In this document: positions 12,237 to 31,584 of the stretch, one piece after another
Numbering within the stretch: the first letter of the stretch is position 1
Layout: each line of letters begins with the position of its first letter
Source: Ignavibacteria bacterium
GTDB lineage: Bacteria > Bacteroidota > Ignavibacteria > UBA10030 > SZUA-254
Direction: 5' to 3'
Length of the DNA stretch: 64,000 nt
NCBI GenBank assembly: GCA_031379665.1
Contig: JANNFI010000089.1
Span: forward strand, 18,170 to 82,169
The notes under the pieces: generated by a model
What the model was told of the DNA's origin: nothing
Seen by the model: only the letters and a program-made list of their open reading frames with translations
Databases searched by the model: none
Made by a program: the position numbers and the translations under genes

Positions 12237-13070
12237 TTACACCAGCCGGAATTCCTTCACCGCGGGCAGTCCGACCTTCTCGCTCGCCCTCCGGTAGAGC
12301 TCCTTCAGTCCCGCCTCTCCCCTTTCTCCCATGTCGATCGTCAACTCGTTGACATACATTTTCACGAACGTTTCGCCCTTTTGGGCGTCGATCCCGCGGC
12401 CCCACTCGAGCGCGTAAGGGATCGAGTCCTCCTGGTGCTTGTATCCGAAATCGATGCTGTCCCGGAGGCCGACAGACAGATCGTGCCCCATCTTTTCCCC
12501 GAGGTCCTTCCGGACCACATCGAGTCCGAGGGGAAGGGGAAGCCCGTTCGTCTCGTCGCGCCAGAGCTCGCCGAAGTCGAGGATTTTATGGTAGCCCTGT
12601 TCCTGGTAGGTAATTTGTCCTTCGTGGATCACGACGCCTGCGTCGATCCTCCCCTCGTCGATCATCGGCATCAACTGGTCGAATGGCCGGTCGACGTGCT
12701 CTATCCCTTCGGTGAACATCCTGAAGAGGAGGGTCGCGGTCGTCAGGGGTCCGGGCGTGCCGACGGTTTTTCCCTTCAGTTCGGCGAGGGTTGTGTATTT
12801 TTTCGAGATGAGGACCGGGCCGTACCCGTCTCCCATGCTTGCGCCGGTGCGCATGATCCAGTATTTGTCCTGGACGTAGGGAAAAGCGTGCGCCGAGATC
12901 GCCGTGACTTCCAGCTCCCCCTTCATCGCGCGGACGTTCAGCGATTGGATGTCCTCGAGCATATGCTCGATCCTGATCCCCTCGAGCTTGACCCTGCCGC
13001 TGGCGAGGCCGTAGAACATGAACGCGTCGTCGGGGTCCGGGCTGTGCCCCACGCGGATGATTTTTTCCAT
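12237..13070 (-). CDS. mqnD: MqnD (1,4-dihydroxy-6-naphthoate synthase), futalosine pathway
   Basis: 277 aa with the VGHSPDPDDAFMFYGL motif typical of MqnD/MqnA-fold proteins. Confidence 0.8.
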   Translation of the reverse strand: MEKIIRVGHSPDPDDAFMFYGLASGRVKLEGIRIEHMLEDIQSLNVRAMKGELEVTAISAHAFPYVQDKYWIMRTGASMGDGYGPVLISKKYTTLAELKGKTVGTPGPLTTATLLFRMFTEGIEHVDRPFDQLMPMIDEGRIDAGVVIHEGQITYQEQGYHKILDFGELWRDETNGLPLPLGLDVVRKDLGEKMGHDLSVGLRDSIDFGYKHQEDSIPYALEWGRGIDAQKGETFVKMYVNELTIDMGERGEAGLKELYRRASEKVGLPAVKEFRLV

Positions 13071-13148
13071 CGGGATTCGATTGAGGTGGTGAACGAGCCA
13101 CCAATATAAATAATCAGCGGGTGATTTCCACGCCTCCGGACGCGCGGT

Positions 13149-14687
13149 TCAGGCCTCTTCGGCCTGCTTCTTCTCGATCCGCTTGATGGTGAGGTAGAGT
13201 GCGATCGCCACGATCGTGATGATCAGCGTGGCCACTCCCAGCCCATACCGGCGGAAGTAGAACTCGTCGATGCTCTCCTGCCCCTGCACCGCCACCACGC
13301 CGGCCACGGCGATCCCCTGGTTCACCACTTCGGCAAATTTCGGCTCGTTGAAGGCGTGCACCGCTGTGCGCGACAACAGGCGCGATTGCCGGATTTCGCG
13401 GAGTCGGAACTTCGCCTCCGAGATTTCCATCCCCTTCTGCTCGGCGTTCGTCACGAGCGAATCGGCCCGCCGTTCAGAGCGCTCGAGCGAGTCGATCATC
13501 GTCCGCATCAGCGCGGCCGCCTGGTAGCCTTTCGGGTTGTCGGCCGGCGAGTGGCAGCGGGAGCAGACCGCCTCGTCGGAAGTCCCGAGGAGGGCGTCGG
13601 TGGCGTTGATGATCGCGTGGTTGCCATGGCACGTCTCACACTCCGGCAGCCCGAGTTCGTCGTACGCCTTCTTGTGGGGGCTCTCGGCGAACAGCGATGC
13701 GTTCATCGCGTGGCAGGTCCCGCACACTTTCGAGATGGAGGCCACTTCCGGCGGCGCCGCGCCGTGGTTGCCGTGACAGTCGTTGCACGAGGGGGCTCCG
13801 AGGTCGTGTTTTTCCAGAAGAGCTTTGCCGTGGACGCTGGTGCGGAACTCGGCGAGCTGGTCGGTCCCGATGGAATACTCCTTCATATACTCGGCGTTCG
13901 CGTGGCAGGTGCCGCAGGTGTTGGGCAGGTTGATCGCGTTGACGCTCGATTTCGCGTCGACGGCCCTGAGGATGTCGTGGCTGCCGTGGCAACTGGAGCA
14001 GACGGCCACATTTGAGTCTCCCTTCGCGAGCCTCATCCCGTGGACGCTCGTTTTGTATTTCTCCTCCTGGTCGATCGGCAGGGCCTGGTTGTACGACCGC
14101 ATGAAGACAGCGCTGGAGTGACAGGTCGCGCAGGTCTTGTTGACGTTCAGGTGATTGACGGGGGACCGGGGATCCTTGACGCTTTTGATGTCGTGGACGC
14201 CGTGGCAGGTGACGCACTGGACCATTTTCTCCACCCCCGAGACGGCCATTTTCCCGTGGACGCTGGCCGCGAGGTTTTCCATCTGGTTCAGACTGAGCGA
14301 CGACTTGAAGTTCGTCTTCATCACTTGCGCGTCGGAGTGGCACCGCTGGCAACTCTTCGAGATGTCGTCGCCCTTCGGGACGCCGATGAATCCGTGGTCG
14401 GCCGACATCGACTTTTCCTGGTCGTCGGAAGATGGATCACCGCCGTGGCACCCCGCGCACGATATCCCTTTCTGATAATGTATGTCGGCCGCGTATTTCA
14501 TCCCTACCGCTTCTCCAAGGGCCTTGTGGCAGGTGAGGCAATTGTCCGGCTTCGCGGTCGCGGTCCTGAACAGGGCGTCGGCGGATTGCGCGTGGAGCGC
14601 GCCGGCGAGGATGAGCTGGATAGCGGCGATGACGATCGGTAGCGACGGCGCGATGCGGATGACCGTTCGTGTTTTCATGAGAGCCAT
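13149..14687 (-). CDS. Undecahaem c-type cytochrome with C-terminal transmembrane anchor
   Basis: 11 CxxCH motifs counted (CLTCH, CAGCH, CQRCH, CVTCH, CATCH, CSSCH, CGTCH, CNDCH, CGTCH, CETCH, CSRCH). Signal peptide [37 protein letters not shown]-terminal helix [18 protein letters not shown]. The alternative ATG at 14678 overlaps the cyt b stop (ATGA). The track extension to 14969 is an antisense overlap. Confidence 0.8.
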
Positions 14688-15769
14688 CCGATGATGGTCA
14701 TGACGATGATGAACATGACGGCGATGAGGCCGCCGTAGGTGACGAGCCGGCTCTTCTTCCCCCTCGCGCTGCTCCTGTCCCAGAACGGCACCAGCGTCCA
14801 GAGCAGCCCGGCGAGGCCGAAGAACATGATGCCGAGCACCTCCCCTTCGAAGACGAGGATGTTCGCCGGAAGGTACTTGAGCGTCTGGAACATGAACATG
14901 AAGTACCACTCCGGTTTGATCCCCGCCGGGGCCGACGCGAAGGGGTCGGCCTTCACGCCGAGCTCCCACGGGAAGAGCACCGCGAGCACGGCCAGAAGGT
15001 TCAGGACGATGAGCCAGAGCAGGAGGTCCCGGTAGAGGAAGTTCGGGAAGAAGGGCATCTTCTTCATTGGGATGGGCGGCGCCGCGCCCGGGGCCGCGAC
15101 ATCGGAGCCCAATGGCTCGCTCATCCCCTGCCGCTGGACCAGAACGAGGTGGATCCCGAGGAGGACGGTGAAGAGGCCGGGAAAGACCGCCACGTGGAAC
15201 CCGAAGAACCTCGAGAGGGTCGCGCCGGTGACGTCGGGGCCGCTCCGGAGGAATTCCAGGATCGGCTCGCCGATGAACGGCACCACGCCGGCGATGTCGG
15301 TGCCCACCTTGGTGGCGAAGAACGCCAGCTCGTTCCAGGGAAGCAGGTATCCGCTGAACCCGAAGCCCATCCCGAGGAAGAGCATCAGCATCCCGGTGAG
15401 CCAGGTGATCTCGCGCGGTTTGCGGTAAGTCCGTTCGAAGAAGACGCTGAACATGTGGATCATCGCCGACAGGATGAAGAGGTTCGCCGCCCAGCTGTGG
15501 ATCGACCGGATCAGCCAGCCGAACTCCACCTTCGACATGATATATTGAATGCTCTCGTACGCCAGGTCCTCGCTGCCTTTATAGTAGAGGAGCAGCATGA
15601 TCCCGGTGACGACCTGGATGATGAAGAGGAAGAGCGTCACACCGCCGAAGTAGTACCAGATGGAGTGGCGGTGCACGGGCACGTACTTCTTCCCCATGAA
15701 GTTCACCAGGTCCTCGAGGTGGACCCGCTCGTTGACCCAGCCGTAGGCCTTTTCGAGGGCCTTCTTCAT
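14675..15769 (-). CDS. Cytochrome b of a bc/b6f-type complex
   Basis: [21 protein letters not shown]..., polytopic with conserved His-containing helices. Start ATG at 15769 overlaps the Rieske stop (ATGA). Confidence 0.85.
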
Positions 15770-16227
15770 ACAATTTTCGCGATCACGATTTCGTCCCCCT
15801 GGACGACGACCTTGTACGGTTCGAGCGGTCTTGGCGGCGGTCCCGCGACGTTCCGGCCGGTCAGGTCGTACTTGCCGTTGTGGCAGGCGCACCAGATCAT
15901 CCCGATCTCCTTGTTGAACTGAACGGTGCAGTCGAGGTGCGTGCAGGTGGCGTCGAACGCCTTGAGCTCGTCGTCGGCCGTGCGCACGAGGATCACCGGC
16001 TTGTTGCCGAACTTGATGATCTTTCCTGAATCGCGCGCAAGGTCGTCCTTCTTCCCCGCGTTCACCGACTTCACCTCCACCTCCGCCTGCACCGGCGGCT
16101 TCAGGTACGCGAGGATGGGGTAGAAGATCGAGGCGAAGAAGGCGAGAAGGCCGCCCGAGAGGACGTACCGTAAAAAGTTTCGTTTTCCCTCATCGGGCGC
16201 CGGCCGGGAGCTGGTTGCGTTCATCAT
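15766..16227 (-). CDS. Rieske 2Fe-2S protein
   Basis: CTHLDC...CACHNGKY Rieske boxes, N-terminal TM helix, 153 aa. Confidence 0.9.
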
Positions 16228-16260: not shown

Positions 16261-17760
16261 CTATTGCGCGCCCGGCGCGTGACACTCGCTGCAGTTCATT
16301 TCCATCCAGGCGTCGCCGATGTCGACCGGGTGTTTGTAATCGATCCCCCCGAGCGAAATTCTCAGTGTGTCCTCCTCGAATTTCTGCGCGAGGATCGTAT
16401 GGCAGGTGTTGCAGTCCTTCGAGAGAACCTTCCCCTGCTCGTTGACGTGCTTGCCGTCGTGGCAGCGGAAACAGCCGTTATAATAGAGGTGCCCCAGGTT
16501 GTCGGGAAACTTCCTCCAGTCGGTCTTCATCTCGGGGAAGTAATTCCGGTTGTAAATCTTCTGGACCTCCGCGATGGCGCTGTCGAGCGTCGGCTTCCCC
16601 GACGCGAAAACCTCCGGGTGGTTGTCCCGGTAATAGCCTTCCATCGTGAGCCGGATGGTGTCGAGCGCGCCCTCCCTGGTGGAGTAGTCTGCCTCGAGCG
16701 CCTCGACGCTCACCGACTTCACCGACGGCAGCGACGGGCTGATCCAGCCGAGCGACATCACGTGGTTCACCGAGCGGGCTGGTGGATGGTAGATGTGCGA
16801 CGGGCGGTTGTGGCAATCGATGCAGTCCATCCGGCGCGTGAAGGCGGTCTCGAGCGAATCCTCCGTGACCTCGACCTCGGTGCTCCGGTAGATCGTCTCC
16901 GCGCCGTCCGGTGTCCTCGACCTGACCCACGGGATCACCTGGCGCCCGCGGTCGAGCGCCTTGTAGGTTACCTCGTGCGCGATGTTCATGTGCCAGTGGA
17001 TGCCGGAGGTGGGCCCCGCCTCTGCGTTTCCTCCCCCGATTTTCATCAGCAAATTAATGTCCCACCGGGTGTTTTTGTCGTCGGCGAGGTAGTAGGTGTT
17101 CGTCCGCTGTTTCTCACTGAAGAAGTGCTTCGGCCAGTGACACTGTTCGCACGTCCCCTGCGCCGGACGGAGGTTTTCGATCGGGGTGGGGATCGGCTTC
17201 GGGTATTTGTCGAAGGCGACTGCGTAAAGCTGGTAACTACCGGAGATCTTCGCCTTCACGAACCAGTCCGCCCCCGACCCGATGTGGCACTGCACGCAGC
17301 CCACCCTCGCGTGGGGGGAGAACTGGTAGGCGGTGTACTCGGGCTCCATCACCGTATGGCACGTTTCCCCGCAGAACTCGTCGGACTCCGTGTACTCGTA
17401 CGCCTTGAAGCTGCCGAACGCCGAGAAGAGAAGGAGCGCGAGGCCGCCGGCCGAAATGCTCACGAACGCGGTCCGGTGCCTCGGGTTGTTCAGGTCGATC
17501 TGCGGGAGGTGCAGACCGTGGGGCTTGCCGAGCCGCTCGCGGCGATTTTCGCGCATCACGCCGTAGGTCATCAGCGCGATCCCCAGGAGGAGGAACACCG
17601 GCATGATCACGAACGTGATGATGCCGACGTAGGGATTCTCGACGGCGGCCATCAACTCGAGGATCGTCAGGAACAGGATCAGGCCGAAACTGATGCCTGC
17701 GATGGCCGCCCCGATGAGCGTGACAAGGTTGTAGAACGATTGGGGGAAGATGCGTTTCAT
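16261..17760 (-). CDS. Heptahaem membrane cytochrome c with three N-terminal TM helices (ImcH-like architecture)
   Basis: 7 CxxCH (CGETCH, CVQCH, CEQCH, CIDCH, CFRCH, CNTCH, CSECH). Three hydrophobic helices precede the first haem. The ATG at 17760 (MKRIFPQSFYNL) is preferred. Confidence 0.75.
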   Translation of the reverse strand: MKRIFPQSFYNLVTLIGAAIAGISFGLILFLTILELMAAVENPYVGIITFVIMPVFLLLGIALMTYGVMRENRRERLGKPHGLHLPQIDLNNPRHRTAFVSISAGGLALLLFSAFGSFKAYEYTESDEFCGETCHTVMEPEYTAYQFSPHARVGCVQCHIGSGADWFVKAKISGSYQLYAVAFDKYPKPIPTPIENLRPAQGTCEQCHWPKHFFSEKQRTNTYYLADDKNTRWDINLLMKIGGGNAEAGPTSGIHWHMNIAHEVTYKALDRGRQVIPWVRSRTPDGAETIYRSTEVEVTEDSLETAFTRRMDCIDCHNRPSHIYHPPARSVNHVMSLGWISPSLPSVKSVSVEALEADYSTREGALDTIRLTMEGYYRDNHPEVFASGKPTLDSAIAEVQKIYNRNYFPEMKTDWRKFPDNLGHLYYNGCFRCHDGKHVNEQGKVLSKDCNTCHTILAQKFEEDTLRISLGGIDYKHPVDIGDAWMEMNCSECHAPGAQ

Positions 17761-17875
17761 TCTGGCGTCGTTGGCTGGAAACAGCTGGCAATGTAATGAT
17801 TCCAGCGGTGAATGCAAATCTCAGCGGCGTTCGCGGCGGGGCTGGAGGCCCCCGTGAGCACACGATTCGTCCGGT

Positions 17876-20125
17876 TCATCGACCGTCGCCCGGCGGCTTT
17901 TCGGGTTCCTGTTCCGTCCCGTCCCCGGCCGCGAGCTCTTCCCTCGTCCTGTCGGCCACGATCCGTTGCAGCTCGAGCGGATGGTCCTCTTCCATCTCTT
18001 CCTCGGTCAGCGTCCCCTTCCAGAACGCCACGTTCAGGGGATACACGTCCGGGTTGAAGATCACGAAGTAGAAGTGCCACACGACGATGGCGAGCGTCGC
18101 CAGCCACGCCTCGTAGTAGTGTATGGTTCGGGCCACGTCATATCCCATTTTCGTGAGGAGGCCGATGAACGTGTTGTCGAACCACATGACGACGCCTGTT
18201 ACGCCCATGATGAAGGTGCCCCATATGAGAGCCCAGTATTCGGCTTTCTCGATGTAGGAAAACCGGTCGAAGAGCGGGCGCTCCGCTTTGAGGCCGAGGT
18301 TGTACCTCACCATCGCGACGGCGTCCCTGGCGTCACGGAGCCGCGGGAGCATGTCGTTGATAAGGCGTCGCCCCGGATGGGTGAAGAGGACGTACCAGAC
18401 GTGGTAGAAGCTCGCCCCCAGCATCACCACCCCGGCGACGCGGTGGATGACGCTGCGGGTGTCGAACACCGATCCGCTCAGCGACCTGATCCACTGCACC
18501 CACCACGCCTCGGGGAAGCGGAGCATGAACCCGGTAACGACCAGCGTCGTGAAGCTCAAAAGGAGCGCTGCGTGCTGGAACCTTTCGTTGGCCCCCATCC
18601 TCGGGTAGAGCTCGTGGCTCGTATGGGGGTGGGGGATGAGGCCGCGCCGGACCATCAGTTTCCGGCGTGATTTCCTCACGAAGTCGAGCGCGTTGTGGAC
18701 GAGCATCCCCCCGATAATGACCACGATCAACGCGATGTAGGCCGTCGAGATCCAGTAGAGCGTCGGCTCTTCCGCGCGGGAGGTCTCGTCGACGTGGACC
18801 TTGCCGACGGTAAACCGTTCGTTCGCCCCGGGATGGCAGCTGCCGCAGGTCTTTGCGAGGTTCGCGTGGTTGATCGTGGAGGTGGAATCGTCCGACGACC
18901 TGATGTTGTGCGTCCCGTGGCAGCTCGCGCAGTTGGCGACCTCGATCGAGCCGCCGCGGATGGCGAGGCCGTGGTAGCTGTCGGAGAAAGTGCGGAAACG
19001 GTCGCTCGCGATGCCGTACTTGGTCGAGAGGGCGGCGGAGCTGTGGCACGGCGAGCAGACCTGTGCCGAGAGGTTTTTCTTCGAGACGGGCGAGTTCGGG
19101 TCGTCGTGCCTGAGAATCGTATGTTCCCCGTGGCAGTCGGTACAGGTCGGCGCGTCGACAACCCCCTTCCGCACGGCCTCGCCGTGTACGCTCCCGTTGT
19201 AAACGTTCGCGATCTCCTCGTGACACTTGGAGCAGGTTTCGGAGATGTTCATCTTGCTGACTTTCGCCGTCGGGTCGTACCCCTTCGCCATCTCGTGGCT
19301 GCCGTGGCAATCGACGCAGTTGGGCGCGTCACCGTTACCGTTGACCAGCGCCCGCCCGTGGACGCTCTGTTCGTACGCGGCGATGAAGCCCGCCGACGGC
19401 GAGGACCTTTCCCTGACATCGGGGTTGTCGAGGTGGCAACTCAGGCAGAGGTGTTCCTGCGCCAGCTTCAAACCGACGGCGTCGTCGGGGTGGCTCGCAG
19501 ACGTGATGTCGTGGTCGTGACAGCTTATGCATTCCGGCGCGCCCTTCACCCCTGCGGAAAACGCCACGCCGTGCGCCGATGCGGCAAACTGCCCGACCAC
19601 ATCGTCGTGGCACCGGCTGCAGCCGTCGGAAATGTTCGCGCGGTTGAACGGCGATTCCTTCGTGTCGGGTGAAATGACGTCGTGGGTACCGTGACAGTCC
19701 TTGCACGAGACCGTGGGTTCTTCCTTCGCGGCGATTGCCCTCGCCATCCCGGGATGGAACGAGTGTTTCAATTCGACGCCCCTGTGGCAGGTGAGGCACT
19801 CCACCGGCCGTATGGTTTTCTTGTGCGGGAGCTCGTTGATGTCGAAGCCCGCGTGACAGGCCGAACAGACCAGTTTCCGATGCGGCGACCTGTCGAGGAC
19901 TGCGGCGTCGACGTGGAGCGACACCGGCGACCCGTTTCTCTCGGTCGCGAGCGATGCGTCGGAGTGGCAGGCCAGGCAGTCGTCCTTCGACTGGGCCCTC
20001 GCGGGACCGTTCAACATCCAGAACGCGGCCAGGAGGAACGCCACGGCCGCGAGGGCCACCACGAGCATCAGCCGCGCGAGCGGACTGCGTGCGGTGTATC
20101 CGGCGGATTGATCGTTGGTGTTCAT
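17876..20125 (-). CDS. 13-haem cytochrome c fused to a C-terminal dihaem b-type membrane domain (CbcL-like architecture)
   Basis: 13 CxxCH in the N-terminal ~450 aa. The C-terminal ~280 aa has 4-5 TM helices with conserved His pairs (HRVAGV...YHVWY, HYYEAW...WHFYF), resembling FdnI/HydC Ni_hydr_CYTB domains. Confidence 0.8.
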   Translation of the reverse strand: MNTNDQSAGYTARSPLARLMLVVALAAVAFLLAAFWMLNGPARAQSKDDCLACHSDASLATERNGSPVSLHVDAAVLDRSPHRKLVCSACHAGFDINELPHKKTIRPVECLTCHRGVELKHSFHPGMARAIAAKEEPTVSCKDCHGTHDVISPDTKESPFNRANISDGCSRCHDDVVGQFAASAHGVAFSAGVKGAPECISCHDHDITSASHPDDAVGLKLAQEHLCLSCHLDNPDVRERSSPSAGFIAAYEQSVHGRALVNGNGDAPNCVDCHGSHEMAKGYDPTAKVSKMNISETCSKCHEEIANVYNGSVHGEAVRKGVVDAPTCTDCHGEHTILRHDDPNSPVSKKNLSAQVCSPCHSSAALSTKYGIASDRFRTFSDSYHGLAIRGGSIEVANCASCHGTHNIRSSDDSTSTINHANLAKTCGSCHPGANERFTVGKVHVDETSRAEEPTLYWISTAYIALIVVIIGGMLVHNALDFVRKSRRKLMVRRGLIPHPHTSHELYPRMGANERFQHAALLLSFTTLVVTGFMLRFPEAWWVQWIRSLSGSVFDTRSVIHRVAGVVMLGASFYHVWYVLFTHPGRRLINDMLPRLRDARDAVAMVRYNLGLKAERPLFDRFSYIEKAEYWALIWGTFIMGVTGVVMWFDNTFIGLLTKMGYDVARTIHYYEAWLATLAIVVWHFYFVIFNPDVYPLNVAFWKGTLTEEEMEEDHPLELQRIVADRTREELAAGDGTEQEPEKPPGDGR

Positions 20126-20132
20126 ATTGGCC

Positions 20133-20972
20133 TCAGCGCGCGAGTTTCACGTCGTTGATCGCCTCGACCACGAGGGGAAAATACCGGTCGAGGGCGCATT
20201 CGACGTCGTCGCGCAGGTTGCAGCTTCCGCCCGGAGACTGGTGCACGCAGACCGAACAGACTTTTTCCCTCAGCCGTGCGACGAATGGCCCGATGTCGTC
20301 GCCTCCGGTGGTGAGCACGATGTCGATGATCTCAGGCAGGTAACGGTTGATGGCACACTCGTCAAAGGTGGAGGTGACGCAAAGCCCCGTCGGGGTGCGG
20401 TCGAGGCATTTCGCGCACACCCTCTGCCGGATCTCCCGGAGATACAGTTCTTCGTGCGACATGGAGTTCTCCCCTTCCATTTCCCAGTTTGTGGTTTCGG
20501 CAGGCTTCCGCGCGGTCCGTCCGGGCTTCACGACCATCACCGGTATGGAGGCGCCTCGCAGGATCTCCCCGGCGATTCCACCGGTGCGGACAGGATCACC
20601 CGCCGGCTCCCCTCCGGCCGGAAGCGGGAGCACGATGATGTCCATCCCTTCCTCCCGCGCGAACCTCAGGATCTCCGCGGCGGGCACCCCCCTGCGGACG
20701 ATACAGGCAAGCCGGGAATTCGGCCTGACCTTCTTCAGGAAGAACTCTTCCATCGCGTGGTATTTTTTCCGGAGATCCGGATCATCCTCCGCCGGTGATG
20801 CGTGATTTCCCGGGGCGAACCTCTCTTCGGGCGGGGTGATGACGTGAATCAGGTATATCTGTGATTTTTTTCCGTCGGAGAGGGCCAGGGCGGCATCGAG
20901 CGCGCATAATGAGGTGTCGGTGAGGTCGACCGGTACCAGAATCTTGTCGATATGTGCGGCTTTCTTCGACAT
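20133..20972 (-). CDS. Universal stress protein domain fused to a duplicated 4-Cys C-terminal module
   Basis: UspA-like N-terminus (KILVPVDLTDTSLCALDAALAL...VLPLPAGG). C-terminal repeats are VCAKCLDRTPTGLC..ECAINRYLP and VCSVCVHQSPGGSC..ECALDRYFP. Lies 7 bp upstream of the CbcL-like gene. Confidence 0.7.
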   Translation of the reverse strand: MSKKAAHIDKILVPVDLTDTSLCALDAALALSDGKKSQIYLIHVITPPEERFAPGNHASPAEDDPDLRKKYHAMEEFFLKKVRPNSRLACIVRRGVPAAEILRFAREEGMDIIVLPLPAGGEPAGDPVRTGGIAGEILRGASIPVMVVKPGRTARKPAETTNWEMEGENSMSHEELYLREIRQRVCAKCLDRTPTGLCVTSTFDECAINRYLPEIIDIVLTTGGDDIGPFVARLREKVCSVCVHQSPGGSCNLRDDVECALDRYFPLVVEAINDVKLAR

Positions 20973-21033
20973 ACCTGTATGAATAATAGACATCCGCGGA
21001 CACACGGGGTATGACCTCTGAAAGGTTCCGATA

Positions 21034-21045
21034 TGATTTTTATCA
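21034..21045. promoter_or_regulatory. Candidate FNR/CRP-family operator (TGAT-TTTT-ATCA) in the usp/respiratory-operon promoter
   Basis: A perfect TGATnnnnATCA palindrome sits about 60-75 bp upstream of the USP start, in the gap between the Crp/Fnr gene end and the USP gene. Confidence 0.35.
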
Positions 21046-21139
21046 GGTTCCGGGATTGATCTTGCGAATCGGAGGGAATTTCAAGGCGCCGGCGAGGGAG
21101 CGTGGCGGCTGACGGATGTCGTGTGGAGGGTTGCCGGGG

Positions 21140-21853
21140 CTAGTCGGGAATGCGTGCCGCCTCTCGAAGGGCGCGCAGGTTCACAATGCTGATCTTTTTC
21201 CCCTCGAGAACGATCGTCCCCTCCCTCGCGAGTTCGGAGAGCACTCGGATGACCGTCTCCGACACCGTGCCGATGTAGCTGGCGATTTCTTCCCTGGTGA
21301 GCCTGCTGCGCAGCGTGTGCCCGTCGTCCTCGGTGCCGTAGAATTCCTTCAGCATCAGGAGCGTCTCGGCCAGACGCTCCCTCACCTGTTTCTGGGCGAG
21401 TGACACCTGCTTCTGTTCGGCCCTGGCGAGGTCCTGCGTCAGTTGACGCATGATGCCTGCGGTGAGCGCGGGGTTTTCTTTCAACAATAGTTGGAAGGTC
21501 TGGCGTGGAATGAAGCAGATCGACGCGTCCTCCAGCACGGTGGCGGTGAGTTCGTACGGCGTCCCGCTCACGAGCGCCCGGTACCCGACCACGTCCCCCT
21601 CGCGCGCCAGGCGGACGATCTGTTCACGCCCCGCCTCGCCGACTTTCGTCAGCTTGACCTTGCCCTGATTGAGGCAATAGAGTCCCGACGGGTAATCGCC
21701 CTCGTAGAAGAGGACCTGGCCGCTCCTGTGGAAGTTGCATCCTTTGTGGAGTTGGAGTTTTCCGAGTTCCTCCTGGGAGAGGACGCTGAACATCGAATGG
21801 AGCCGCGGCAGGCAGGTCTCGCAGTGCGGTATCTCGAAAAGATTTTTCATCAC
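21140..21853 (-). CDS. Crp/Fnr-family transcriptional regulator with N-terminal Cys cluster
   Basis: cNMP-binding domain plus C-terminal HTH (EIASYIGTVSETVIRVLSELAREG). The N-terminal HCETC...C pattern is reminiscent of Fnr. Confidence 0.8.
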   Translation of the reverse strand: MMKNLFEIPHCETCLPRLHSMFSVLSQEELGKLQLHKGCNFHRSGQVLFYEGDYPSGLYCLNQGKVKLTKVGEAGREQIVRLAREGDVVGYRALVSGTPYELTATVLEDASICFIPRQTFQLLLKENPALTAGIMRQLTQDLARAEQKQVSLAQKQVRERLAETLLMLKEFYGTEDDGHTLRSRLTREEIASYIGTVSETVIRVLSELAREGTIVLEGKKISIVNLRALREAARIPD

Positions 21854-21854
21854 G

Positions 21855-22790
21855 CTATAAAATCTCGGAGATCTCGTGAAGGGTGAAGCGCGTGCGTTTC
21901 CCCTTGAGCGCGACGTCGTTGAACGTTTCCCTTGGGCGCACCCGCCCGAAGACCTCGCGCAGCGCCGCGTCGGAAATGAGCATCGACGTGCCGGTCTGTT
22001 TGTTGGCCTCCTCGATTCGCTCGGCCACGTTCACCGCATCGCCAATGACGGCCATTTTTTCCATGTTGGCCATGCCAATGGTGCCGATCACCACAGGGCC
22101 GTAATGGATCCCGATGCGGACACGGAACTTCCGCCGGTACATCGCCTGCAGGTAGGGGTTCAGCGAATCGACCTCCCAGAGCATCTCGAGTCCGGCGCGG
22201 ATCGCGCGGTAGACCGGATCAGGAGCGTCGTCGATCCCGAAGAGCGCCATGATGCCGTCGCCGATGTAGTCGTTGATCCGGCCGCCGTGAGAGTCGATCA
22301 CCCGCCCCATTGTGATGAAGTACCTCCGGAGCGCGTGGATGACATCGTACGCCGGGAGCGACTCCGCGAACGATGTGTAATCGCCGATGTCCGCGAAGAG
22401 GATGGCCAGGTGTTTCTCCTCTCCGACCGACCCTAGCTTGAGACCATGGCCCGTCTGGTCGGCGAGCTGAATGTCGAGCGTGTCGAGGACCGTACGCCGG
22501 ACGGTGACGTCGCCGTTGACCCTGGTCTGACAGGCGAGGCGCACCTGGGGATCGAAGTTGAGCCTGCCCGCAATTTTCTCTTCGGCGCCCTGGCGCGGCG
22601 AGCAACGGTCGAGGCCGGCGATTACCACGACACGGCAGGTGGAGCACCTGGCCTTCCCGCCGCAAACGTGGACGTGGGGGATCCCGGAATCGAGGGAGGC
22701 CTCGAGGATGGTGGTCTCTCCGGATGCCTCCATCTCTTTCTCGTCGGGGAGCATCAAGATCTTGTTCATCGCCTCACCGTCAGTTGCCAT
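21855..22790 (-). CDS. 2Fe-2S ferredoxin domain fused to class III adenylate/guanylate cyclase catalytic domain
   Basis: N-terminus has CGGKARCSTCRV...C (plant-type ferredoxin). The C-terminal CHD has FADIGDYTSF...RIGIHYGPVVIGTIG...GDAVNVAERIE. An alternative start at 22769 (MNKILMLPDEK) also fits. Confidence 0.8.
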   Translation of the reverse strand: MATDGEAMNKILMLPDEKEMEASGETTILEASLDSGIPHVHVCGGKARCSTCRVVVIAGLDRCSPRQGAEEKIAGRLNFDPQVRLACQTRVNGDVTVRRTVLDTLDIQLADQTGHGLKLGSVGEEKHLAILFADIGDYTSFAESLPAYDVIHALRRYFITMGRVIDSHGGRINDYIGDGIMALFGIDDAPDPVYRAIRAGLEMLWEVDSLNPYLQAMYRRKFRVRIGIHYGPVVIGTIGMANMEKMAVIGDAVNVAERIEEANKQTGTSMLISDAALREVFGRVRPRETFNDVALKGKRTRFTLHEISEIL

Positions 22791-22814: not shown

Positions 22815-23414
22815 TTATTCCTTCTTCTCCGGCTGGACCTTCTTCATCTCCACCCTGATGGTGAGCCTGACATCCTTCGAGACAACGAGACCGCCGGCTT
22901 CGAGCGCCTTGTTCCATTTGACGCCAAAATCGAACCGGTCGATGGTGGTTTCAGCTTTCCAGCCCATCCTCACGCCGCCTCGCGAATCGGTCATGCTGCC
23001 GAAGTAGATCGCGTCGAGCACGACCGGCTTCGTCGTATCGCGGATTGTGAGATTCCCGGTAATTTTGTACTTGCCATCCGGGGTCTTCTCGAACTTGGTG
23101 CTCTTGAAGGTCGCCTCAGGGTGCTTCGTCGCGTCGAAGAAGTCAGGGCCGAGCAGGTCGTTGTCGCGGTATTCGTTGTCGGTCGCGATGGTGCCGGTCT
23201 TGATGACGGCTTCGATGGTCGCAGCCGAGAAATCCTCACCCGCGGAGGTCATCTTGACGTCGAAGTCCTTGAACCGTCCGGTGGCTTCGGCGATGATCAT
23301 ATGGGTGACGGCGAATTCGACCGAACTGTGCGACCGGTCGACCTGCCAGGCGTCCTGGCCGGCGAGCGGTCCCGCGGCGAGGATGAGACCGAAGAGAACT
23401 GAGAGTATCTTCAT
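22815..23414 (-). CDS. YceI-family periplasmic protein
   Basis: MKILSVLFGLILAAGPLAGQ signal peptide plus the YceI-like HSSVEFAVTHMIIAEATGRF motif. The ATG at 23414 was chosen over the extended track ORF. Confidence 0.75.
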   Translation of the reverse strand: MKILSVLFGLILAAGPLAGQDAWQVDRSHSSVEFAVTHMIIAEATGRFKDFDVKMTSAGEDFSAATIEAVIKTGTIATDNEYRDNDLLGPDFFDATKHPEATFKSTKFEKTPDGKYKITGNLTIRDTTKPVVLDAIYFGSMTDSRGGVRMGWKAETTIDRFDFGVKWNKALEAGGLVVSKDVRLTIRVEMKKVQPEKKE

Positions 23415-23562
23415 GATGGTTGTACCCCGGTATAAGTGTTTGTGATTGGAATCGATCATTTTAGCCCAAGGGAAGGAATTGCAAGATAACAACGGCGGAG
23501 GGTAAATACAAGTTCCGCGCGACAGGCCGGGGACAACAGTCCTTAAAAATGAGGGGATTACC

Positions 23563-23931
23563 CTATTGTAGCAGTACTGTTCCATTAAAGCGTGAATAAT
23601 GACAACTGGTTACAGGATCTGTGGGGACCAGGGCCCCATTGGCATGAGCCAGCGTGTTCCGTGCGACGACGCCGCGTAAACTACAATGGTAAAGTTTCTT
23701 CCGGAGCGCACCAAGACATGTTTCGATATCCCGGAGACTTTTTCTGAGGGTAATCTGGGCAAATGCCAGAGCTACGAACTGACTGCGCCGCGAGAACCGT
23801 TTGACGTAACGATCCCCCTGATATCGTCTGACGCACCGGCGGAACTCCGGCATCGGGAGGAAGTCCCTGAGTTGAGCGAAGACCGTTTTTCCCCTGTGTT
23901 CATCTACCCATCCTAACCCGAGGAGAAACAT
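23563..23931 (-). mobile_element. IS4-family (DUF4372-type) transposase N-terminal fragment, truncated remnant
   Basis: MFLLGLGWVDEHRGKTVFAQLRDFLPMPEFRRCVRRYQGDRYVKRFSRRSQFVALAFAQITLRKSLRDIETCLGA matches the N-terminal region of IS4/ISPg1-like transposases. The ORF stops after 122 aa and the DDE catalytic part is absent. Confidence 0.6.
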
Positions 23932-24205
23932 CAGAATAGGTGGGGAATTGACACTGTCAAAGTTCTAATCTATTGCTCTCTTTTAATGTCGTAACGCGGT
24001 CACGTACAATGTGTTACAAGGATTTATGAAAAGTTTTTTGAGACAGTATTGCTATTGTATCTCAAGATAATCGTTCCTACCTTACGGTATGTTACAACAT
24101 TCAGCGATTTACATATCGGAAGTTCGGGACGCACGTGAACGATTATTAAGGTAGGCGTCAAGCTTCAATTCTCGCTTAGAAACTCGGTGGAGATTTAATC
24201 AAGCG

Positions 24206-24709
24206 ATGCGAATAACAAAAGTACTTGGCATTCGCATATTTGGGGTCGTTATATTTTGCATCCTAATGCTTGATGTAATTTTTCTCACGTTGGAAAATAG
24301 AGAACTTAAAACCGCTCTCGATGCCGTTGCCCAGCGCGACGAAAGCCCTCAGCTTCCCGGGATGGTTATACCTACTTTTGGTGCTTTGACTCTGGGAAGA
24401 AACGCAGTCACACTTAATCTTGCTGATTCAGGTAAGCATTATCTTCTTTTTTTACTCTCCGCAGACTGTCACGCGTGTGAATCCACGTTAGGCTCATGGA
24501 ACTCCTTTAAGACCGAGGGTAACGTCGAGATACTGGGTGTATCGCTCAGTAATTACGAGGAGACCGTCCGATATGTGGGTTCTAATAGTGTCGAGTTTGA
24601 TGTCTTGACGCTGTCAGATCCGAATTTTATCCCCACAATCAAAATTAGAAGTATCCCATTAACCATCCTCATAAACCCGAGAGGGGTCGTCGTTAAATCG
24701 TGGGGGTGA
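24206..24709 (+). CDS. Membrane-anchored thioredoxin-fold (TlpA/ResA-like) protein with CHAC active-site motif
   Basis: N-terminal TM helix. YLLFLLSADCHACES is a CxxC motif in a thioredoxin-like context, and IPLTILINPRGVVV is a cis-Pro region. Confidence 0.55.
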   Translation: MRITKVLGIRIFGVVIFCILMLDVIFLTLENRELKTALDAVAQRDESPQLPGMVIPTFGALTLGRNAVTLNLADSGKHYLLFLLSADCHACESTLGSWNSFKTEGNVEILGVSLSNYEETVRYVGSNSVEFDVLTLSDPNFIPTIKIRSIPLTILINPRGVVVKSWG

Positions 24710-24825
24710 ATACTGTCACCAAGCGATCTACAAGATATTCGATCCCTCCTCATATCGGAGAATATTTCAGATAATTCCAAGCCATAAATAATTATCAACT
24801 CAATCAACCAACCTAGGAGGGAGTC

Positions 24826-25047
24826 ATGAATGCTTTTCCGAAATCCAGCCTGCTTTATGTTATTGGATTCGTCATTGCCATGGCGGGTTTAATTCAGCTA
24901 AATGTTACCGTAGCCAAAGCGGACCTCCCTCCATGTCCCACAGTGTGTTCTTGTGATGACCCGAGGCCGGGTGGGTGTGCGTGGAACTGTAACGGACAAA
25001 TCATCTCAAATTGTGGGGCATACTACAGTTTCTGCTGTCATTCTTGA
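24826..25047 (+). CDS. Secreted cysteine-rich small peptide (10 Cys in the C-terminal 42 aa)
   Basis: AGGAGG lies 7 nt upstream of the ATG. Signal peptide ends ...VTVAKA, followed by DLPPCPTVCSCDDPRPGGCAWNCNGQIISNCGAYYSFCCHS. Confidence 0.55.
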   Translation: MNAFPKSSLLYVIGFVIAMAGLIQLNVTVAKADLPPCPTVCSCDDPRPGGCAWNCNGQIISNCGAYYSFCCHS

Positions 25048-25179
25048 TGTTCCAGGGGAGTGAGGGTCACGCTCTCTCGTCCTGAATGAACAGCGGATTG
25101 CTGTCCTTTGACAAACATCACCCCTAAGTTATCATTAAAAATAAAAGATAGTGCATTGATAACATAGGGGTGAAATATT

Positions 25180-25938
25180 ATGATGAAAGTATGCTTGGGA
25201 CTAGCATTATTCTTACTCGGCTGTGTGCCGTGGGGATTTGATAAATCGGATGCTATTGTTGCACGCTCAATGACATCATGGTCTGATCGCGATTGTTTGA
25301 CAATCATGCTTTCAGCGATGCAGCATAATTATTACGATCCTGAGAAACCGCCGATTTTGGCTTGTGTGACACCGTACACACCGAGAGTTGTCATGGCATT
25401 GAACCGAATGTCTCAGCTTAAACATCGATGGTCAGATGAGACACTCCAGCACCACGCGGATGCGCTCCTCAAAGACGCGTCAGGGCTGTATGCGGATTGG
25501 GAGCATAATGCTCAGATCTATGATTCAAAGTTAAATCGACTTCGGGATCCAACACAGATGGATTCGATAACATTTCTCGTTACCCTTTCGAATCGGACAT
25601 GGCCGTGCGCTCCGCCGGTACTACTTACGTTGGACAACCTGACTGGTGACAAAACCCCACAGTTCATGCAGTTGTCAGACTGGCCGTGCGAGGTTCCCGA
25701 TCTCACTAATATTGAGTCGAATATATTTTTGATCAACGATCGCGGTGATACCGTGAGACCGAGGTATGTCTGGGGACGGAAAGATGACCAACTCAGAACC
25801 GACGAGACGTTACTAGTGATGTTTCCACTTCGGTCTGAAAATACACATTTATTCGAAAATTCAACTCAGATAACCATCGCATTCGCCGAGTTCACACCTA
25901 AACTCCAGCTGACGTTTCCTTTGGCCTCCTTGCGATAA
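25180..25938 (+). CDS. Lipoprotein, hypothetical (island cargo)
   Basis: 252-aa ORF with MMKVCLGLALFLLGC lipobox. No recognised domain. Confidence 0.5.
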   Translation: MMKVCLGLALFLLGCVPWGFDKSDAIVARSMTSWSDRDCLTIMLSAMQHNYYDPEKPPILACVTPYTPRVVMALNRMSQLKHRWSDETLQHHADALLKDASGLYADWEHNAQIYDSKLNRLRDPTQMDSITFLVTLSNRTWPCAPPVLLTLDNLTGDKTPQFMQLSDWPCEVPDLTNIESNIFLINDRGDTVRPRYVWGRKDDQLRTDETLLVMFPLRSENTHLFENSTQITIAFAEFTPKLQLTFPLASLR

Positions 25939-26213
25939 CTGTAGGTCAACCCCATCAGATTAGGCAAAAGCATTGGCCCAACAATTGTTGGACATTTTTT
26001 TATTATAGAACATTTCAATAGTTATCTCTGCTCTTTGGGGTCGTAGATACTAATTTCCGAGGTGGATCACTTTGAGGGGAGCCGGTCATTCATCGAGACG
26101 CCGCTAATTTTTCAACAAAGCCATTGCGCTTCTCACCGAATATCCCTTTACACCTATGTCGATTCGTTACCAATCACCAGCATTGCTCCCAATAAAATCT
26201 GACCGGAACGGAG

Positions 26214-26396
26214 TCACGAGCAAAATTGATTCTTCAAATTTCCATATGTAGGCGAAATAGCTTTTGATGGATCGTACCCTAAAAATTCGACAATTTTGGA
26301 AGACCGGCACTTTCCAGGATTCTCCCTTCCACTTTCCCACCCCAAGTACGTATTTCGATTGACACCTAGAAGTGCCGATGCTTGATAGGCAGTCAA
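26214..26396 (-). pseudogene. XRE-family HTH regulator, 5'-truncated at the island/host junction
   Basis: LTAYQASALLGVNRNTYLGWESGRENP is a canonical HTH_XRE second half. Upstream in frame the HTH continues as LRQRRVDLNL into GC-rich sequence with no ATG/GTG before a stop, so the ORF-track start is a TTG. Confidence 0.45.
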
Positions 26397-26481
26397 GTTG
26401 AGGTCAACCCGCCTCTGCCTCAGGTGATCCGGGGGCGACAGGCTGGGGATGGGGCGGGGGGAACACGGTGCGGCGCGGCCC

Positions 26482-28056
26482 CTATTTCATCAGGTTCATT
26501 TTTCGCACCATCTGGTGGGACCCGCTCCGCATCCTGCAAAAATAGATGCCGGAGGGGAGCGCCGAAGCGTCGAAGGTGACGCTGAACCGGCCCGTCCCCG
26601 GGTTGCCGTCCACCAGGGTTGCGACCTCGGCGCCGAGCGTGTCGTACACCCTGATGTTCACCGGTCCGCCGTCGGACAGAAACGAAATGACGGTCGAGGG
26701 ATTGAACGGGTTGGGATAGTTCTGGCTGAGGCTGATGGTCTCAGGGAGGCCGTCCGCGGCGGCCGCGGTCGGATCGACGATCGGGAGCACCTGGAAATTC
26801 TGCAGCAGGACCGCGTCGAGGACATCCTGCGGCACGCCGAACCACTGCCGGAGCACCGATGCGTACACCTGACGGAAGTCGTATTGCATCTCCAGGTTGT
26901 CGTTGTTCGAGACCAGATCGGGAATCACCGGATTCGCGCCCGTGATGCCGTGGTTGATCGCTTTGCCAAAGAGGATGACGGGCGCCGCCTCGCCGTGGTC
27001 CGTCCCGAAGCTGGAGTTCGACTTGATCCTGCGACCGAACTCAGAGAAGGTCATCCCGATCACGCGGTGGTCCGCCCTCAGCAATCGGAGGTCCTCCTGG
27101 AACGCGAAGATCGCCTCTGAGAGTTTGCCGAGGAGGTCGGCGTGGTTTCCGAACTCCGTCCCGAGCGTGCCGTCGACCTGGCCGGCGTGGGTGTCGAATC
27201 CCCCGATGTTGGTGACGTAAATGCGTGTCTTCAGCCCGCCCGCGATGAGTTTGGCGACGATCTTGAGCTGGTCGGCGAGCCTGTTCGACCCGGACGGCGG
27301 ATAGACCGGCGACTGCGACGGCACTCTTTCTGCGGCCGCCTTGATCCTGTCGGTGTAGACCGACGTCTGATTTACGACCTGCCGGATGAACGTCAGCTCG
27401 TGGCCGGCGGGCGTGTCTGGGGCGGTATCGACGCCGCCGGTGAGCAGCTGGTAGAACGACGTGGGGCTGGTGATGGCCATTCCGAGCGAGCCGTTTGGTC
27501 CCTGGAGCCCCGTCGAGACCACCGAACCGATCTGGATCGCCAGTGGGTCAGGCATGATTTCATTCGGATACCCGATGGGAAAATCGGCGTAGGTCTGGTC
27601 CAGCCACCTGCCGAGCCATCCCGAGTTCAACGTCTCGTCAGCGTCCGAACCCGTCAACCAGATGTCCATGCCGCGGAAATGCGATTTGTTCGGGTTCGGA
27701 TAACTCACTCCCTGGACGATGTTCAGCCGGCCGTCGGTGTAGAGGTTCTGCAGCCCCGACATCGAGGGGTGGAGCCCCGTCTCGTCGGTGAGCTTCAGTA
27801 CCTTGTTCTCGGGGATCACGATGTTTCCACGGGCGTTCATGAGGGCAGGGTACTGGTCGAGCGGGATCACCGTGTTGAGCCCGTCGTTGCCGCCGTTGAG
27901 CTGGATCAATACGAGGACTCGGTCGCTCGGCGTTCCCGCGCTGATCAGGCTCTCGAGGACCTTTGACCGCCCGTAGGTTTTGATGTTGAAGCCCCCGAGG
28001 AGGAACGGGAGGAGGGCGACGGGGGCGGAATTCCTGATGAATGACCTTCTTCTCAT
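26482..28056 (-). CDS. DUF1501-family (alkaline-phosphatase-like superfamily) protein with Tat-like signal and T9SS C-terminal sorting domain (copy A)
   Basis: MRRRSFIRNSAPVALLPFLLGGF is a twin-arginine-like motif. The C-terminus NYPNPFNPSTVISF...VYDTLGAEVATLVDG...GIYFCRM...KMNLMK matches the Por_Secre_tail pattern. Confidence 0.75.
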   Translation of the reverse strand: MRRRSFIRNSAPVALLPFLLGGFNIKTYGRSKVLESLISAGTPSDRVLVLIQLNGGNDGLNTVIPLDQYPALMNARGNIVIPENKVLKLTDETGLHPSMSGLQNLYTDGRLNIVQGVSYPNPNKSHFRGMDIWLTGSDADETLNSGWLGRWLDQTYADFPIGYPNEIMPDPLAIQIGSVVSTGLQGPNGSLGMAITSPTSFYQLLTGGVDTAPDTPAGHELTFIRQVVNQTSVYTDRIKAAAERVPSQSPVYPPSGSNRLADQLKIVAKLIAGGLKTRIYVTNIGGFDTHAGQVDGTLGTEFGNHADLLGKLSEAIFAFQEDLRLLRADHRVIGMTFSEFGRRIKSNSSFGTDHGEAAPVILFGKAINHGITGANPVIPDLVSNNDNLEMQYDFRQVYASVLRQWFGVPQDVLDAVLLQNFQVLPIVDPTAAAADGLPETISLSQNYPNPFNPSTVISFLSDGGPVNIRVYDTLGAEVATLVDGNPGTGRFSVTFDASALPSGIYFCRMRSGSHQMVRKMNLMK

Positions 28057-28063
28057 GGCATCC

Positions 28064-29767: not shown

Positions 29768-29969
29768 CGTTTGATCCTTATTTCGTGCGGTCTTCATAGG
29801 TAGGGAAAACCCGCCGGCGAAACAAGATTTCGCGGAGAGAGTGTGTCGGGGATCACTTTAAAACAGGAGGGGAACGCCACCTTCACGAACGAAGATGCGC
29901 GCCGTCACCTTTTTCGAAGGGGAGCGAGCAAGAAAAAAATCGTCCCGGTGGGGGGATTGTCGGGGTGGG

Positions 29970-31577: not shown

Positions 31578-31584
31578 GTCGTCC

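Follow-up and report, generated by a model that had tools for sequence, protein, structure and literature searches.

A putative FNR-type regulator and a conserved palindrome beside a ferredoxin-cyclase fusion in an Ignavibacteria respiratory locus

The closest described counterparts of the locus reported here are two groups of regulators and one group of enzymes. The regulators are the FNR/FixK/Anr class (Escherichia coli FNR; Aliivibrio fischeri FNR, PDB 5cvr/5e44) and the cAMP-CRP group (E. coli CRP, Vfr, Mycobacterium tuberculosis Rv3676). The enzymes are class III nucleotide cyclases in which an N-terminal sensor is fused to a C-terminal cyclase homology domain (CHD), such as the CHASE2-guanylate cyclase Cya2, the BLUF-activated adenylate cyclases (e.g. 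OaPAC), the pH sensor Rv1264 and the globin- or H-NOX-coupled cyclases. The [2Fe-2S] redox-sensing regulators SoxR and AirS kinase offer a functional analogy only, that of a reversible redox or damage sensor controlling an output domain; SoxR is of the MerR type, with a fold unrelated to that of the fusion protein described below, and its output differs. The locus lies in a 64,000-nucleotide stretch of an Ignavibacteria bacterium genome (GCA_031379665.1, contig JANNFI010000089.1; hereafter the window) and comprises a gene for a Fer2 ferredoxin domain fused to a CHD (Fer2-CHD), a Crp/Fnr-family regulator gene and a USP gene with a cysteine-rich C-terminus (USP-Cys8). All three genes are on the minus strand at the positions where the original prediction, made from the letters alone, had put them, and a Pfam domain scan showed its description at the domain level to be accurate.

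With a probability of about 0.55, we read this locus as two separate metal or thiol sensors encoded side by side rather than as a linear relay, the FNR-type regulator driving the respiratory operon downstream. Since the regulator lacks the residues that bind a cyclic nucleotide monophosphate (cNMP), the Fer2-cyclase would probably be a parallel sensor and not the regulator's input.

The regulator and a conserved palindrome

The regulator matches the Pfam models cNMP_binding (PF00027, 75.7 bits), HTH_Crp_2 (PF13545, 63.3 bits) and Crp (PF00325, 28.2 bits) and is the sole cNMP-fold protein in the window. It has the two-domain fold of the FNR class in common with FNR, and the superfamily, fold and cNMP_binding match in common with the cAMP-CRP group. 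Its closest structure in the PDB is an uncharacterised P. gingivalis protein (2gau, E = 5.8e-35), while A. fischeri FNR is matched at ~1e-21 and E. coli CRP at 1e-13 to 1e-14. Among NCBIfam models Fnr and FnrL score best, ahead of CRP, with all of them below cut-off (Fnr 93.7 vs 228 bits), and the regulator is only ~29% identical to FNR.

Residues were compared with manually entered E. coli FNR and CRP sequences, numbering the regulator from ATG 21850; the PDB alignments give independent evidence for the matches to FNR, and the CRP sequence used recovers the regulator open reading frame (ORF) at E = 5e-16. C10 and C13 of the regulator align with FNR C20 and C23, and the central C112 with C122, whereas the position of FNR C29 is occupied by Ser19. 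The predicted N-terminal cysteine cluster is therefore present as a C-x2-C motif only, the third N-terminal cysteine of FNR being replaced by serine. Among 25 family members (47-82% identity), C59 and C112 are invariant and C10, C13, C38 and Ser19 are at least 90% conserved; C38 and C59 are without an FNR counterpart. The phosphate-binding cassette (PBC) of CRP has fared differently. CRP G71-E72 corresponds to G89-Y90 and R82-S83-A84 to L101-T102-A103, so that Tyr90 and Leu101 replace Glu72 and Arg82 and only the Ser/Thr position is kept (Thr102). Across the 25 members the tyrosine is near-invariant and the arginine position is Leu, Ala or Ser, never Arg. As a control, the cNMP-binding neighbours of distant Fer2-CHD genes (loci L024, L032, L040 and L044 of our numbering) do keep the G-E...P-R-[ST]-A cassette. 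In the recognition helix (S197-E198-T-V-I-R202) the Glu and Arg of the FNR E--SR motif are retained with Ser changed to Ile, and Arg180 of the CRP RE--R motif is missing. From these residues, the regulator looks like a member of the FNR class that lacks the cyclic-nucleotide PBC, has an atypical set of cysteine ligands and appears unable to bind cAMP.

The family is also found near respiratory genes, as FNR-class regulators are: multihaem and Rieske-cytochrome b genes in the window, and in L092 (439-7792) a full cbb3 oxidase cluster (ccoNOQP-ccoGHIS, with ccoS, ccoNO, ccoP, ccoG and ccoH), directly downstream of which lies a 51%-identical orthologue. A second gene with a cNMP_binding fold, devoid of a helix-turn-helix (HTH) domain, follows that orthologue in L092.

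The motif TGAT-N4-ATCA occurs once in the 64 kb, at 21034-21045, within the 167-bp spacer between the regulator and usp genes (0.76 copies expected per window). When this spacer was aligned with those of the three closest loci (L001, L088 and L089), the sequence upstream of the motif was mostly unalignable, whereas the segment from ATGAY-A(A/T)AA-ATCAT to the start codon was conserved; nucleotide BLAST between the window and L001 likewise resumes its alignment exactly at the box. In all four loci 66.5-68.5 bp separate the centre of the box from the usp start codon downstream of it, a spacing compatible with a candidate activator site, and control of the downstream cytochrome operon by the regulator, as originally predicted, is plausible given a conserved palindrome ~67 bp from that codon.

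The same palindrome, CATGAY-N4-ATCATG, lies directly 3' of the regulator gene in seven loci, namely the window, L001, L088, L089, L091 (ACATGACGAAAATCATGC), L093 (AACATGACGAGAATCATGTT) and L094 (AACATGACAATTATCATGTC), and the shorter ATGAY-N4-ATCAT follows the regulator gene in 6/6 further loci examined. The latter motif is rare, with 15 sites in the 1.13 Mb examined (0.013 per kb), six of which fall within the ~1.5 kb of regulator-downstream spacers. The family consensus is aCATGAY-N4-ATCATGt. Its core, TGAY-N4-ATCA, resembles the FNR site TTGAT-N4-ATCAA, but the half-site opens with CATGA instead of TTGA. The regulators of L091, L093 and L094 are only 56-61% identical to that of the window; these loci are without the cyclase, and the genes downstream of their boxes are usp-yceI-porin-yceI, adh-yceI-porin-yceI and tonB-adh, respectively. 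Because regulator and box occur together in cyclase-free loci, the pair appears from sequence comparison to predate its association with the cyclase and to extend beyond it, and the respiratory and envelope genes to which it is tied are in keeping with a function of the FNR type.

The search for FNR and CRP boxes suggested with the original prediction thus yielded a conserved FNR-type box in the regulator-usp spacer, whereas the canonical boxes in the window (perfect FNR TTGA-N6-TCAA and CRP TGTGA-N6-TCACA) gave only chance-level matches away from the locus. For TGTGA-N6-TCACA there was none near the locus, and a single site with one mismatch in the 64 kb fell inside a low-GC island described below. 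The relaxed pattern CATGAYN4RTCATG with two mismatches was not enriched in the window (8 found vs 6.2 expected), and a wider regulon cannot be claimed from the window alone. Autoregulation was considered and rejected, there being no conserved box upstream of yceI, the first gene of the regulator's own putative operon.

The ferredoxin-cyclase fusion and its family

Both halves of the fusion are matched well above the Pfam cut-offs: Fer2 (PF00111) at aa 17-91 (E = 3.5e-10, 40.1 bits vs 21) and Guanylate_cyc (PF00211) at aa 126-266 (E = 1.4e-21, 77.4 bits vs 21.9). The arrangement of an N-terminal sensor and a C-terminal CHD with its catalytic residues kept is that of the known sensor-CHD proteins, but the sensor here is a ferredoxin domain of the [2Fe-2S] type. 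Its cysteines are spaced C43-X5-C49-X2-C52-X34-C87. These four and a fifth, C63, are invariant in a 29-sequence family alignment, and the pattern C-X5-C-X2-C-X10-C-Xn-C is present in 111/120 of the best homologues. The domain probably binds a [2Fe-2S] cluster. The best NCBIfam model is fdx_isc, and the relatives found in the PDB and NCBIfam are only of the ISC/adrenodoxin/NqrF type (PDB 1i7h, which is ISC Fdx, 3lxf, 3ah7, 3hui and 1e9m; adrenodoxin-like P450 ferredoxins and NqrF are among the relatives). A plant-type ferredoxin, with its C-X4-C-X2-C-X29-C spacing, is thereby rejected. Hence the predicted fusion of a ferredoxin to a class III cyclase is real, whereas the plant subtype was wrong and the word 'adenylate' had been assumed (see Asp174 below). 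In an AlphaFold model of the full-length protein each domain is confident, but pLDDT falls below 50 in the linker (aa 101-121) and in the cluster loop (aa 41-50), so that the model says nothing on how the domains are coupled. In contrast to known sensor-CHD fusions, no cyclase-transducer-element motif is evident in Fer2-CHD.

Of the solved structures, that of the guanylate cyclase Cya2 from Synechocystis comes closest to the cyclase (2w01, E = 2.4e-23); BLUF-activated adenylate cyclases, OaPAC among them, come next. The metal aspartates D134 (in FADI) and D178 (in IGDG) are invariant (29/29) and align with the aspartates of Cya2 and OaPAC. The transition-state residue N254 is invariant in the same alignment, and at R258 an Arg is retained by 115 of 120 homologues, with Lys in another 3. 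The possibility raised beforehand that the domain is a pseudo-cyclase fails on these intact catalytic residues, with which such a status does not fit.

The base-binding pocket is less conventional. Among class III cyclases the base is specified by a Lys in those that make cAMP and by a Glu in those that make cGMP, summarised as a K-D versus E-x rule (PMC4215837), and the exchange E488K turns Cya2 from a guanylate into an adenylate cyclase (PMC5995499). In Fer2-CHD the adenine-specifying Lys is replaced by Asp174, a position that in the 120 best homologues is N in 69, D in 42 and T in 3, and never K or E. The second specificity residue, D251, is the Asp typical of adenylate cyclases in 118/120, and the phosphate-contacting Arg (R226 here) is Gly in 75/120. 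Neither known pair is therefore present, be it the Lys-Asp or Lys-Thr pair of adenylate cyclases (D174 at the Lys position, D251 kept) or the Glu with Cys/Ser/Gly of guanylate cyclases (Asp174 and Asp251, where Cya2 has Glu488 at the first position); the Asp/Asn-Asp pocket sets the family apart from the other sensor-CHD fusions, with their Lys-Asp/Thr or Glu-Cys/Gly. With the Lys replaced, the product is uncertain and the label 'adenylate' an assumption. M. tuberculosis Rv1900c, with an Asn-Asp pocket, is reportedly an active adenylate cyclase of relaxed specificity, and because of this parallel cAMP would be the most likely product of Fer2-CHD. In both proteins the specificity Lys is replaced and the Asp kept, Asn standing in Rv1900c where the window protein has Asp, but Rv1900c carries an N-terminal alpha/beta-hydrolase domain, unlike Fer2, and was not among the PDB matches of the cyclase at E<=1e-3. 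Hidden Markov models (HMMs) of the pyrimidine cyclase PycC match the domain at 77.8 bits, about the level of the generic Pfam CHD model. A Pycsar defence system was rejected, the PycC similarity being generic to CHDs and the window containing no effector gene.

Both domains occur in 120/120 of the best database matches (50-91% identity). Among the matches listed from species-representative genomes, the best of them 53% identical, were relatives from Poribacteria, Acidobacteriota, Alphaproteobacteria, cyanobacteria (Microcoleus), Verrucomicrobiota, Hymenobacter, Planctomycetota, Leptospira and others. Our literature search found no paper on, and no characterised example of, a ferredoxin-fused class III cyclase; as far as that search shows, the Fer2 sensor and the Asp/Asn-Asp pocket appear uncharacterised, though the architecture is abundant in databases.

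The neighbours of Fer2-CHD genes vary, and include GTP cyclohydrolase I (L002 and L003), alcohol dehydrogenase (L004 and L005), a Ser/Thr kinase (L006) and a Rieske protein (L007). When the regulator, USP, cytochromes and YceI of the window were searched against 87 cyclase loci (tblastn), orthologues were found only in L001, whose cyclase is 91% identical, with weak cNMP-domain matches alone in three others. The order yceI-cyclase-regulator-usp-cytochromes was also found in L088 and L089 (cyclases 77% and 86% identical), so that it is kept from yceI through the cytochromes in L001, L088 and L089. The linkage of cyclase and regulator is real and limited to one narrow Bacteroidota clade.

Several further observations concern these neighbourhoods. 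A gene for a YdjM-family membrane hydrolase lies between cyclase and regulator in L088 (5821-6882) and L089 (3086-4114) and is absent from the window and L001. In L002 (6027-8930) and L003 (427-2040), where the family member is 58% identical, 13 nt separate the end of the GTP cyclohydrolase I gene from the Fer2-CHD gene that follows, and in L002 a Pyr_redox_2/AIF_C (ferredoxin-reductase-like) gene precedes it, which hints at a reductase as partner or at some connection with GTP. Four alphaproteobacterial genomes (L024 3370-3810, L032 7225-7692, L040 4792-5235 and L044 3246-3686) encode, 1-3 kb from the Fer2-CHD gene, a stand-alone cNMP-binding protein of ~147 aa that is a candidate for the cognate receptor in those lineages.

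Gene arrangement, USP-Cys8 and the respiratory operon

The features of the locus are listed in Table 1. The start of yceI, ATG 23414, was set by aligning orthologues, and yceI lies upstream of the cyclase gene with a gap of 24 nt. The cyclase stop codon TAG is at 21855-21857 and the regulator starts at ATG 21850 (GTG 21853 is possible), which leaves a spacer of 1-4 nt; the Crp/Fnr gene thus follows the cyclase as predicted, but does not overlap it. A database protein identical to the regulator is 236 aa long, which fits the ATG 21850 start. The same strand and the 24-nt and 1-4-nt gaps point to co-transcription of yceI, cyclase and regulator as a putative operon. A sigma-70 promoter and terminator scan, which does not cover Bacteroidota promoters and was largely uninformative, showed no terminator-like site on the minus strand between these three genes and zero minus-strand promoter matches. 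Rfam and tRNA scans of the window detected no RNA genes.

Table 1. Features of the locus, in window coordinates, with the evidence for each.
Feature	Position	Strand	Evidence or remark
YceI-like periplasmic protein gene	22815..23414	-	Pfam YceI, E 3.3e-44; first gene of the putative upstream operon yceI-cyclase-regulator
Fer2-CHD fusion, 311 aa, putative [2Fe-2S]-regulated class III nucleotide cyclase	21855..22790	-	Pfam Fer2 and Guanylate_cyc; PDB Cya2 2w01
Fer2 domain, aa 10-100	22491..22763	-	Predicted ligands C43, C49, C52, C87; invariant extra C63
Cyclase homology domain, aa 123-311	21858..22424	-	D134, D178 metal; D174, D251 base pocket; N254, R258 transition state
Putative FNR-type Crp/Fnr regulator, 236 aa	21140..21850	-	Pfam; NCBIfam Fnr/FnrL below cut-off; PDB 2gau and A. 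fischeri FNR
Candidate operator CCTGAT-AAAA-ATCATA	21032..21047	-	Palindrome ~67 bp upstream of USP start codon; conservation
USP and C-terminal Cys8 protein gene, first of respiratory operon	20133..20972	-	Pfam Usp; ~30 homologues of the same architecture
Cys8 domain, two repeats, predicted helical	20136..20450	-	Eight invariant cysteines; AlphaFold model
Multihaem cytochrome c with cytochrome b561-type membrane domain, 749 aa	17876..20125	-	Pfam Cytochrome_C7, Cytochrom_c3_2, Paired_CXXCH_1, Ni_hydr_CYTB
NrfH/NapC-like membrane multihaem cytochrome	16261..17817	-	Pfam Cytochrom_NNT; NCBIfam NrfH below cut-off
Rieske	15766-16227	-	Pfam
Cytochrome b	14675-15892	-	Pfam
Multihaem c, start uncertain	13149-14969	-	Pfam
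MqnA-like	12237-13070	-	Pfam

The USP-Cys8 gene heads the cytochrome operon, as had been proposed, with its start moved to ATG 20972 as the most likely codon, rather than GTG 21005. It is separated by 7 nt from the cytochrome c/b fusion gene, and the respiratory genes 3' of it are likewise separated by gaps of a few bases. The order Rieske, cytochrome b, multihaem c and MqnA (12237..16227) recurs in L001 and L089. Relative to L001 (14933-18127), the window lacks a cytochrome segment of ~3.2 kb (junction ~17818-17926) with the genes for a multihaem cytochrome of 672 aa and a cytochrome b of 329 aa; L001, L088 and L089 all carry this segment, flanked by the genes for the cytochrome c/b fusion and the NrfH-like protein.

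The Usp domain of the first gene is matched at 57.9 bits, but in place of the nucleotide motif G-x2-G-x9-G-[ST] its sequence reads LP-AGG-x9-GG, with one Gly invariant in the family. Mycobacterial Rv1636 provides an analogy for a USP as cAMP receptor; such a role is not supported here, the nucleotide-binding glycine motif being degenerate and unconserved. The C-terminal ~110 aa contain two repeats of C-x2-C-x8-C-x7-C-A-[IL]-[ND]-R-[YF]-[LF]-P with eight invariant cysteines. This Cys8 domain had zero Pfam matches even at E<=10, and its AlphaFold model, four helices of moderate confidence (pLDDT 75), had no fold match in the PDB. Homologues number ~30 only, and the protein may be a third metal- or thiol-containing component of the locus.

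Upstream of the locus, between a DUF1501 gene and yceI, lies a low-GC island of ~3 kb (23423-26465; GC 0.45 vs 0.61) in the place of a MarR gene found in the close relative L001. Within the island are a DUF4372 transposase fragment (23563-23931), a thioredoxin/AhpC-like ORF (24206-24709), an ORF for a 73-aa Cys-rich peptide (24826-25047) and a 252-aa ORF with no Pfam match. Further upstream are two tandem DUF1800/DUF1501 pairs (26482-29797 and 29970-33291), duplicated pairs being found in L001 also; in the pair that was scanned with Pfam, the DUF1501 protein carries a T9SS sorting domain, in keeping with a Bacteroidota clade. A perfect CRP-consensus palindrome (TGTGATCCCGGTCACA) lies between the two pairs of L001, at 5142-5157, and has no perfect equivalent in the window.

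Competing explanations and meaning of the locus

In the explanation that we favour, the regulator would sense O2 or redox state, most likely through an Fe-S cluster or possibly through a thiol switch. Its active form would bind the CATGAY-N4-ATCATG palindrome (Table 1) and, once bound, activate the operon of usp-Cys8, multihaem and Rieske-cytochrome b genes. Fer2-CHD would be a soluble class III nucleotide cyclase, presumably a homodimer, whose ISC/adrenodoxin-type [2Fe-2S] domain may report redox state or cluster integrity to the CHD via the ~25-aa linker. Sharing a transcript with yceI and the regulator in this clade, it would be expressed under the same conditions, and its cNMP (probably cAMP) would act on a receptor encoded outside the window.

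Several points weigh against this explanation. In four related loci cyclase and regulator appear to be co-transcribed, which suggests a functional tie that it leaves unexplained, and even with the canonical PBC missing the regulator might conceivably bind nucleotides in a non-canonical mode. Only three of the four FNR cluster ligands are matched (Ser19 standing at C29), so a cluster is no more than putative; the fourth ligand could be C38, C59 or a residue other than Cys. Moreover, the window's own box (CCTGAT...ATCATA) is the least perfect copy of all, and activation as opposed to repression is a guess.

The relay set out in the original prediction would have the redox state of the [2Fe-2S] domain set cyclase activity, and the resulting cAMP turn on the multihaem locus through the adjacent Crp-type regulator. 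The two genes are indeed 1-4 nt apart on one strand, in an arrangement, yceI-cyclase-(ydjM)-regulator-usp-cytochromes, that is kept in L001, L088 and L089; the regulator does possess the cNMP_binding fold, the cyclase is catalytically plausible, and Rhodospirillum centenum GcyA-CgrA is a precedent for an adjacent cyclase/CRP-type pair. We nevertheless regard the relay as highly improbable, and the proposed feeding of cAMP to the regulator is not supported. The Glu and Arg of the PBC are missing in 25/25 aligned members of the regulator family, while the recognition helix and the box are of the FNR rather than the CRP type. The cyclase is absent from L091, L093 and L094, which have both regulator and box, the regulator lies beside cbb3 genes in L092, a YdjM gene intervenes in L088 and L089, and outside the one narrow clade the cyclase family is unlinked to Crp/Fnr genes. 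The adenine-specifying Lys of the cyclase is itself missing. This last point could also be taken to mean that the cyclase domain is non-canonical, making cGMP, a pyrimidine cNMP or nothing, or serving as a redox-controlled dimerisation or scaffold module. Such a domain is quite unlikely, since its metal aspartates and transition-state Asn and Arg are (nearly) invariant, which is unexpected for a pseudo-enzyme, its second specificity residue is the Asp typical of adenylate cyclases in nearly all homologues, and no Pycsar effector gene lies nearby; what speaks for it is the absence of K and E at the Lys position (N 69, D 42, T 3 of 120), the guanylate cyclase Cya2 as best PDB match, the Gly at the R226 position in 75 homologues, a PycC HMM score of ~77 bits near that of the generic Pfam model, and GTP cyclohydrolase I 13 nt upstream in L002 and L003.

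The adjacency might also be a lineage-specific accident, a widespread Fer2-cyclase having landed in an existing neighbourhood of yceI and an FNR-type regulator with no tie to the respiratory locus. In L091 and L093 the genes for YceI, USP and regulator do form a group that lacks the cyclase, the cyclase has varied neighbours elsewhere, and the region is plastic, with YdjM present or absent, a 3-kb low-GC island in place of MarR and a 3.2-kb cytochrome segment missing relative to L001. However, the position of the cyclase between yceI and the regulator, its strand and its short gaps are kept in four loci (cyclases 77-91% identical), which suggests selection for co-expression, and both proteins are plausible redox sensors that fit the respiratory context. 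An accident of this kind is thus unlikely as the whole account, but the rivals are not fully exclusive and it can be combined with the favoured explanation. A further reading, which we find rather doubtful, is that Fer2-CHD represents a widespread, as yet uncharacterised class of iron-sulfur-gated cyclases, marked by the five invariant cysteines and the Asp/Asn-Asp pocket and recruited here into the operon of an FNR-type regulator, so that a redox-dependent cNMP signal and an O2/Fe-S signal would converge on anaerobic multihaem respiration via a non-canonical receptor; candidates for the latter are the altered pocket of the regulator and the lineage-specific USP-Cys8 protein.

Taken together, the sequence does not appear to support a redox-to-cAMP-to-Crp module, and ordinary FNR-type control of anaerobic respiration accounts for most of the locus. 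A caution for annotation follows, in that a 'cNMP_binding + HTH_Crp' protein need not be a cAMP receptor even when its gene adjoins that of a cyclase; here its sequence is that of an FNR-type protein. If the Fer2 domain gates the cyclase, an iron-sulfur input would be added to the haem, flavin, pH, bicarbonate and lipid sensors of class III cyclases. The Fer2-CHD family spans many phyla, including Leptospira, cyanobacteria, Acidobacteriota, Alphaproteobacteria and Bacteroidota, and its unusual Asp/Asn-Asp pocket makes the product worth determining. The conserved box, for its part, provides a testable operator for a putative FNR-like regulon in those uncultured Bacteroidota whose respiration uses multihaem and Rieske-cytochrome b complexes.

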